Below the pieces are notes generated by a model. That model had not been told where the DNA came from. It ran no database searches and worked only from the letters and a program-made list of their open reading frames with translations. The position numbers and the translations under genes were made by a program. DNA of 49,610 bases from Escherichia coli (GTDB lineage: Bacteria; Pseudomonadota; Gammaproteobacteria; Enterobacterales; Enterobacteriaceae). Shown here piece by piece: positions 78 to 153 of the stretch. The stretch's first letter is position 1. Every line of letters begins with the position of its first letter. The DNA lies in assembly GCF_003334305.1 (NCBI RefSeq), contig NZ_QOWS01000028.1; one strand, 5' to 3'.

Positions 78-153
78 GCCTGATAAGACGCGGCAGCGTC
101 GCATCAGGCATTGTGCACGATTGCCGGATGCGGCGTGAACGCCTTATCCGGCC
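78..153. repeat. REP/BIME-type palindromic units (two copies)
   Basis: gcctgataagacgcggcagcgtcgcatcaggc (78-109) and gccggatgcggcgtgaacgccttatccggcc (123-153) match the enterobacterial REP consensus (GCCKGATGCGRCG...); extragenic, downstream of the minus-strand yghU. Confidence 0.8.

Follow-up and report, generated by a model that had tools for sequence, protein, structure and literature searches.

Two REP loci in an Escherichia coli chromosomal segment: a BIME-2-type unit at an IS621 insertion downstream of yghU and an eroding BIME array between sslE and pppA

Genomic context of the two loci

The window analysed here, a stretch of 49,610 nt of Escherichia coli DNA, is chromosomal. It carries, in order, yghU, gss, pitB, the glc operon, sslE, pppA and the gsp genes (T2SS-beta), with a CP4-like island at its end. 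REP sequences lie at two places in this window, referred to below as site 1 (downstream of yghU) and site 2 (in the sslE-pppA spacer), and both occupy the extragenic position at gene 3' ends that is typical for REPs. Site 1 was originally located between convergent genes, where the hyb operon and yghU have their 3' ends, and the yghU stop codon is 30 nt from the foot of the nearer REP. The coordinates of all features are collected in Table 1. The original prediction had named the neighboring genes (yghU, sslE and pppA) correctly, and had missed the convergent setting of site 1, the IS621 flank of its first REP and the decay of site 2.

Table 1. Features at the two REP loci (window coordinates; position 1 is the first base of the window)
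Feature	Position	Strand	Remarks
IS621 left (non-coding) end, outer 75 nt	1-75	-	Carries bridge RNA nt 1-61
Core dinucleotide CT (AG on the + strand)	76-77	-	One of two copies flanking IS621
z2-type REP	78-109	+	0 mismatches to z2 consensus; left half of occupied IS621 target
S-type short linker, 13 nt, ATTGTGCACGATT	110-122	.	Aligns with naRNA4 model linker
y-type REP (iREP on the + strand)	123-152	-	0 mismatches to y consensus
yghU	184-1050	-	Stop codon 184-186
sslE stop codon TAA	32419-32421	+	
Intact y-type REP	32422-32451	+	1 mismatch to y consensus (first base G to C)
First 21 nt of 31-nt linker between y and inverted z1-like (iz1) REPs	32452-32472	+	From strain alignments
Inverted z1-like REP relic, 3' 18 nt, TGCGCCAGCTTATCGGGC	32473-32490	-	
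Third y REP relic (GCAGG + CCCGCATCCGGC)	32519-32535	+	Central 18 nt deleted relative to K-12
pppA	32561-33370	+	Next gene in the sslE-T2SS operon

Several further features were recorded elsewhere in the window. Window positions 25388-25609 on the minus strand, in the glcB-glcA spacer, gave a full-length match to Rfam RF00117 (C0719 RNA; 295 bits). The region from about 6570 to 16415 carries a gene cluster that is absent from K-12 or truncated there by IS5 (the yghQ-IS5-yghO region), comprising genes for a hypothetical protein, an LPS biosynthesis protein, a YtfJ-family protein, lptF/lptG paralogues, a serine palmitoyltransferase (spt), an acyl carrier protein, an epimerase and a fatty acyl-AMP ligase; this content suggests a locus for lipid or sphingolipid-type biosynthesis and export. 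According to the annotation of a near-identical strain, the region from about 44569 to 49577 is a CP4-like island remnant that adjoins the end of the T2SS operon and holds DUF4942, cbtA/yeeU-type toxin-antitoxin, yeeS, antirestriction and DUF932 genes. In the annotation of strain FORC_042, gss is frameshifted (counterpart of window 1252-3114) and glcA has an internal stop (counterpart of window 25681-27363); in the window the gss ORF is uninterrupted (620 aa).

REP units at site 1

E. coli REPs are imperfect palindromes of 30-40 nt that belong to the types y, z1 and z2. We searched the window using REP consensus sequences that are consistent with three REP query sequences given by Durrant et al. 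2024 (PMC11208160). The search confirmed the REPs predicted at 78-153, where the sequence reads GCCTGATAAGACGCGGCAGCGTCGCATCAGGC - ATTGTGCACGATT - GCCGGATGCGGCGTGAACGCCTTATCCGGC and consists of a z2 unit and an inverted y unit, both matching their consensus perfectly, and no REP consensus match was obtained in any of 100 dinucleotide-preserving shuffles of the window. The z1 consensus had no match within 3 mismatches anywhere in the window, and a relaxed search of all 49.6 kb (up to 6 mismatches, and half-sites) returned no REPs beyond three intact units, two of them at site 1, and the relics of site 2. Using Rfam RF02564 (naRNA4), a model of the y + z2 BIME-2 unit with a gathering score of 59.5 bits, we obtained a match that covers window 77-153 on the minus strand over the full model (92.6 bits, E = 1.7e-15), and the plus strand of the same stretch also scored above the threshold (60.1 bits). 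Both units fold, on either strand, as the expected imperfect hairpins with an internal mismatch (z = -5.4 and -4.2). The REP pair is 100% identical between the window strain and K-12, and the repeat is dispersed: across 5426 complete E. coli genomes, the median number of matched places per genome was at least 35-37.

In a BIME-2, z2 and y REPs stand in inverse orientation around a short S linker (Ton-Hoang et al. 2012, PMC3333891). Site 1 has this layout, z2(+) - 13 nt - y(-), with the naRNA4 covariance match spanning the linker; there is a single unit at 78-153, as in K-12. Because only one copy is present, without a tandem array, we classify site 1 from its sequence as a single BIME-2-type unit, composed of z2 and inverted y REPs with a short S linker.

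TnpA-REP (RAYT) depends, both to bind and to cleave, on a conserved GTAG tetranucleotide located 5' of the hairpin foot (PMC3333891). This motif is missing from all three intact REPs in the window: the z2 REP is preceded by ACAAG, its GTAG (present in K-12) having been split by an insertion, the y REP of site 1 is flanked by CCAG both in the window and in K-12, and the y REP of site 2 is flanked by ATAA. The REPs of the window would therefore not be TnpA-REP substrates.

IS621 insertion at the foot of the z2 REP

We aligned positions 1-200 of the window with the hybG-yghU spacer of K-12 and found 100% identity from position 76 rightward and no homology leftward, so that the break falls at the foot of the z2 REP (77/78). 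An assignment of window 1-77 to hybG or to the spacer was rejected, as this stretch corresponds to the left end of IS621. The first 700 positions of the window are 100% identical to strain FORC_042, in which an “IS110-like element IS621 family transposase” (RefSeq annotation) is located between hybG and the REP pair. In that strain, whose locus (L003) is used for coordinates outside the window, the element measures 1279 bp including one AG (L003 11665-12943) and has AG on both sides, one copy at L003 11663-11664 (hybG side) and the other at L003 12942-12943 (window 76-77). The junction on the hybG side reads TTTCGT-AG followed by ATACTGTTATGG, and the junction on the REP side reads GGGATAATACA-AG followed by GCCTGATAAG. 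At the empty site in K-12 there is a single AG, within GTAGGCC inside TTTCGTAGGCCTGATAAG; its minus strand reads CTTATCAGGCCTACGAAA and contains ATCAGGCCTAC, which is a natural IS621 target sequence with core CT (PMC11208160). According to Choi et al. 2003, as cited in PMC11208160, IS621 insertion into REPs is site-specific, and the occupied target in the window has ATCAGGC on the minus strand at 84 to 78, the whole target being ATCAGGC-CT-AC.

As the window holds only 77 nt of IS621, the recombinase was identified in FORC_042, where the 326-aa protein matched PDB 8wt6 (“IS621 transposase”) over its full length (728 bits, E = 8.5e-219). Since the minus strand encodes the recombinase, window 1-77 corresponds to the outer portion of the left non-coding end, which encodes the bridge RNA. 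The published IS621 bridge RNA is 177 nt long, with a 5' stem-loop (A1-U33) followed by target-binding and donor-binding loops (Hiraizumi et al. 2024, PMC11208158; Durrant et al. 2024, PMC11208160). With the recombinase ATG as the reference point, these 177 nt fall at L003 12927 to 12751, with nt 1-61 corresponding to window 61 to 1; the predicted fold of the 177-nt region upstream of the ATG has a 5' stem-loop at nt 1-33 and two large loop domains, and the part inside the window covers the 5' stem-loop and the start of the target-binding loop. Window 12 to 4 holds the left target guide, AUCGGGCCU. Read in that direction, this stretch is ATCGGGCCT and the target half at 84 to 76 is ATCAGGCCT, and their pairing leaves one G:T wobble; the target-binding loop's encoded specificity is ATCGGGCCTAC (PMC11208160). 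A search with the Rfam release 15 library of the region around the bridge RNA (L003 11600-13100) returned no family other than adjacent naRNA4 (REP) matches, and bridge RNAs thus appear not to be detectable with this library.

In this strain, IS621 has used the z2 REP as its attachment site: the bridge RNA pairs with ATCAGGC-CT-AC, located at the REP foot, and insertion of the 1279-bp element by the recombinase at the CT core has left window 1-77 as the left end of IS621 and has split the GTAG of the REP. The REP pair of site 1 would now serve the yghU side only. We infer that the rest of IS621 is present upstream of the window in the source strain, because genomes identical over window 1-700 carry the full element.

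To assess the frequency of the insertion, we used window 1-260 as a junction query against the 5426 complete E. coli genomes. It was covered over at least 80% in about 689 of them (~13%), a coverage-based estimate that may include close relatives of IS621, and most of the remaining genomes matched only window 76-260, which corresponds to the empty site. Judged from these sequence matches, the presence of IS621 at the hybG-yghU REP is a common natural polymorphism in E. coli.

Two further observations concern IS621. At its right end, outside the window (L003 11722-11752), a hairpin ACAGCGCC-GTCA-GGCGCTGT precedes a run of seven T on the hybG-sense strand; as a terminator-like structure inside the element, it would stop read-through of the hyb operon into IS621. 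In addition, the inverted z1-like REP of the K-12 sslE-pppA spacer (L002) and of strain PEC1011 carries ATCGGGCCTAC, the exact sequence encoded by the loop. The same stretch in the window (32484-32494) reads ATCGGGCCTGG, so that this potential second IS621 site is degraded. No intact target (ATCRGGCCTAC) was found anywhere in the window, and matches with up to 2 mismatches occurred at chance level.

The sslE-pppA spacer

A REP cluster had likewise been predicted at 32423-32535. One intact y REP is present, with a single mismatch, and the comparison with orthologous spacers of other E. coli strains, where REPs were indeed found at this place, supports an array by descent; the rest of the predicted cluster, and with it most units of the array, has decayed to relics in the window. 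With up to 6 edits allowed relative to each REP consensus, 32452-32535 still contained no unit, the recognizable half-site fragments being CTTATCGGGC (32481-32490) and CGCATCCGGC (32526-32535). The site scored below the naRNA4 gathering threshold of RF02564, and site 2 repeat queries matched a median of 9-11 places per genome in the same 5426 genomes.

Relative to K-12, the spacer of the window lacks five stretches of 8, 16, 5, 11 and 18 nt. The 8-nt stretch, GCCCGTAG, is located 5' of the first REP in K-12, whose site 2 y REP has GTAG; with its loss the y REP of the window is now flanked by ATAA, and its predicted hairpin foot (32423) is 1 nt past the sslE stop codon, as compared to 8 nt in K-12-type spacers. 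The 16-nt deletion, seen relative to both K-12 and strain E7, removed the 5' arm of the z1-like REP together with 10 nt of linker. The 5-nt and 11-nt losses fall in the spacer, and the 18-nt loss is the center of the third REP.

We then compared the spacers among strains, whose length ranged from about 121 to 326 nt. The longest arrangement in number of intact REPs was that of PEC1011 (y - iz1 - y - iz1 - y, 5 intact REPs), followed by K-12 (y - iz1 - y, 3 intact REPs), E7 (y - iz1 and a relic, 2 intact REPs), and the window, FORC_042 and NDM1 (one y and two relics, 1 intact REP). The spacers of OkiPb01692, WP2 and MLI109 resemble that of the window except for a longer deletion, which removed the remaining iz1-like relic as well (1 intact REP). 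Nested deletions of 8 to 33 nt were seen across the aligned spacers, and the diversity of E. coli strains was sufficient to show in which direction the deletions went. The first y REP after sslE was intact in all 9 spacers examined (including FORC_042), while its neighbors decay. BIME-2 and atypical BIMEs are known to vary in this way in copy number and length (Ton-Hoang et al. 2012, PMC3333891).

Taken at the level of sequence, site 2 is a decaying BIME array in the sslE-pppA-gsp operon, made of one y REP and debris. The free variation in copy number (1 to 5) and the deletions argue for weak constraint on most of the array.

Possible roles of the REPs

The general statement that REPs bind gyrase or IHF and stabilize mRNA, which accompanied the original prediction, agrees with the literature (PMC3333891). 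Set beside the observed sequence identity, structure, insertion junctions and strain polymorphism, every gyrase, mRNA and translation effect discussed below for the two loci is one that we infer from other members of the family.

In BIME-1, which pairs y with z1, IHF sites are carried by the long L linker (PMC3333891). Site 1 has z2 and a 13-nt linker and thus differs from a BIME-1 or IHF-binding RIB-RIP element. Searching for the IHF consensus WATCAANNNNTTR, we found no match within 1 mismatch at either site or in the K-12 counterpart of the site 2 spacer, and the sole match with 2 mismatches, near the start of pppA, corresponds to the background frequency. With no L linker and no IHF consensus, the suggestion of IHF binding does not apply to either site. 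Gyrase cleavage is enriched in BIME-2, with y REPs preferred (PMC6379681), and on these grounds the y REP at 123-152 is a plausible candidate gyrase site.

On the yghU transcript, the two stable hairpins about 30 nt past the stop codon would impede 3' exonucleases. REPs between convergent genes go together with higher expression of both genes (bioRxiv 10.64898/2026.03.23.713779). REPs located at most 15 nt from a stop codon stall ribosomes and lower translation, according to Liang, Rudd & Deutscher 2015 as cited in PMC12306157; such stalling is not expected at yghU, since 30 nt from the stop is too far.

At site 2, a single mRNA is reported to cover sslE and the 13 T2SS genes downstream (Yang et al. 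2007, as cited in PMC5012682), and the surviving REP would therefore be intercistronic. REP325 acts as a partial, partly Rho-dependent attenuator and as a stabilizer of upstream mRNA, and genome-wide, REPs in tandem gene pairs go together with upstream-biased expression; the behavior of REPs is nevertheless much context-dependent, and their effects on mRNA half-life vary over the genome (bioRxiv 10.64898/2026.03.23.713779). The site 2 REP plausibly favors sslE over the downstream secretion genes, an idea that fits because sslE is reported to be co-transcribed with them, REPs in tandem pairs attenuate and stabilize, and this REP is 1 nt from the stop codon. In such a scheme, the y REP hairpin would shield the sslE segment of the mRNA from 3'-to-5' decay and would partly attenuate read-through into pppA and gsp, yielding more of the substrate SslE than of its secretion machine. 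Given its position less than 15 nt past the stop codon, the REP may in addition cause terminating ribosomes to stall, and the stabilizing and stalling effects on SslE output would then oppose each other.

Discussion

We consider it very likely that both sites are ordinary E. coli REP/BIME repeats, with the z2 REP of site 1 as an IS621 target and site 2 as an eroding array, and with roles assigned by analogy to the family. That the matches could be chance palindromes rather than REPs can be dismissed, given the absence of any match in the shuffles, the Rfam E-value and the tens of homologous copies per genome. It is extremely unlikely, in our judgment from sequence, that site 1 encodes a nucleoid-associated ncRNA similar to naRNA4 that would condense the chromosome with HU: naRNA4 derives from the y + z2 BIME-2 unit of REP325 (PMC4550694) and RF02564 matches site 1 in full length above the gathering score on both strands, but the model is itself built from the REP repeat, so that the match merely restates the BIME-2 identity, and the nucleoid role is disputed even for the founding member (bioRxiv 10.64898/2026.03.23.713779). 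GC-rich hairpins just past stop codons, together with reports of REPs acting as terminators in some contexts (PMC3333891; bioRxiv 10.64898/2026.03.23.713779), could also suggest that the palindromes are Rho-independent terminators that end the yghU and sslE transcripts. We regard this as very unlikely, as the transcribed strand has no T-run after any of the REP hairpins, and scans for sigma-70 promoters and intrinsic terminators found none on the yghU strand of 78-153 or on the sslE strand of 32422-32535, the one match at site 2 being a hairpin on the minus strand (32461-32478), antisense to the operon. The reported co-transcription of sslE with its 13 downstream genes (PMC5012682, citing earlier work) and the finding that termination at REP325 is partial and partly Rho-dependent (bioRxiv 10.64898/2026.03.23.713779) also speak against terminators.

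The serious rival holds that the REPs are functionally neutral at these loci: as selfish or relic repeats, they would persist and decay in dispensable spacers, and yghU, sslE and the T2SS genes would not be meaningfully affected. The site 2 array varies among strains from 5 to 1 intact REPs, with nested deletions, GTAG, which TnpA-REP requires (PMC3333891), is gone from every intact unit of the window, an IS beside site 1 is tolerated in ~13% of genomes, and the effects of REPs on half-life are uneven genome-wide (bioRxiv 10.64898/2026.03.23.713779). Against this stand the first y REP after sslE, which has remained intact in 9 of 9 spacers with its neighbors decaying, and the site 1 pair, which has stayed 100% identical to K-12; moreover, a stable hairpin 1 nt past a stop codon inside an operon is hardly physically inert. 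On balance we judge neutrality possible and somewhat unlikely.

Beyond the identification of both sites as ordinary REP/BIME repeats, erosion of the sslE-pppA BIME (from 5 to 1 intact REPs, with the hairpin foot moving from 8 to 1 nt past the stop) might act as a non-coding dial on the SslE:T2SS ratio and on SslE yield; separately, IS621 at the hybG-yghU REP might alter 3'-end processing of the hyb mRNA. We offer these ideas as speculative and rather improbable. SslE expression and secretion levels differ among E. coli isolates (PMC5012682), and if the dial were real, BIME erosion could contribute to such differences.

REPs, BIMEs and the preference of IS621 for REPs are all already well described, and the importance of the present results lies mainly in annotation. 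The first 77 bases of the window should carry the label of IS621 left end (5' part of the bridge RNA). The hybG-yghU REP provides IS621 with a natural site whose occupancy is polymorphic, ~13% of complete E. coli genomes carrying the insertion. For work on REP tuning in operons, the sslE-pppA spacer offers a handy natural series (1, 2, 3 or 5 intact REPs, at varied distance from the stop).

Comparison with known systems

Site 1 resembles the BIME-2 of E. coli (named after Bachellier/Gilson, as reviewed in PMC3333891) in its consensus match, imperfect hairpins, S linker, extragenic 3' position and high copy number. It differs in being a single unit, whereas BIME-2 typically form multi-copy tandem arrays, and from E. 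coli REPs in its missing GTAG (split by IS621 at z2, CCAG at y). The insertion next to it is like IS621 as described (Choi et al. 2003; PMC11208160; PMC11208158) in its target at a REP foot, the CT on both sides, the recombinase and the bridge RNA end; nothing in it is different in kind, and it represents one natural polymorphic site, with 77 nt inside the window.

With REP325 / naRNA4 of the yjdM-yjdN operon, site 1 shares the type of unit (y + z2, 92.6 bits with RF02564) and site 2 shares the intercistronic position within an operon. REP325 has six tandem units, whereas site 1 has one unit between convergent genes and site 2 has one y REP and relics. In other strains, site 2 resembles BIME-1 / RIB-RIP elements in layout, with y and inverted z1-like REPs across a 31-nt linker; it differs in that this linker lacks the IHF consensus, the array is multi-copy in some strains and the z1-like unit is truncated in the window. 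Because of the multi-copy arrays in some strains, we refer to site 2 as an atypical BIME rather than a BIME-1. Finally, in its position 1 nt past the TAA, the sslE REP is like the stop-proximal REPs described by Liang et al. 2015, as cited in PMC12306157.
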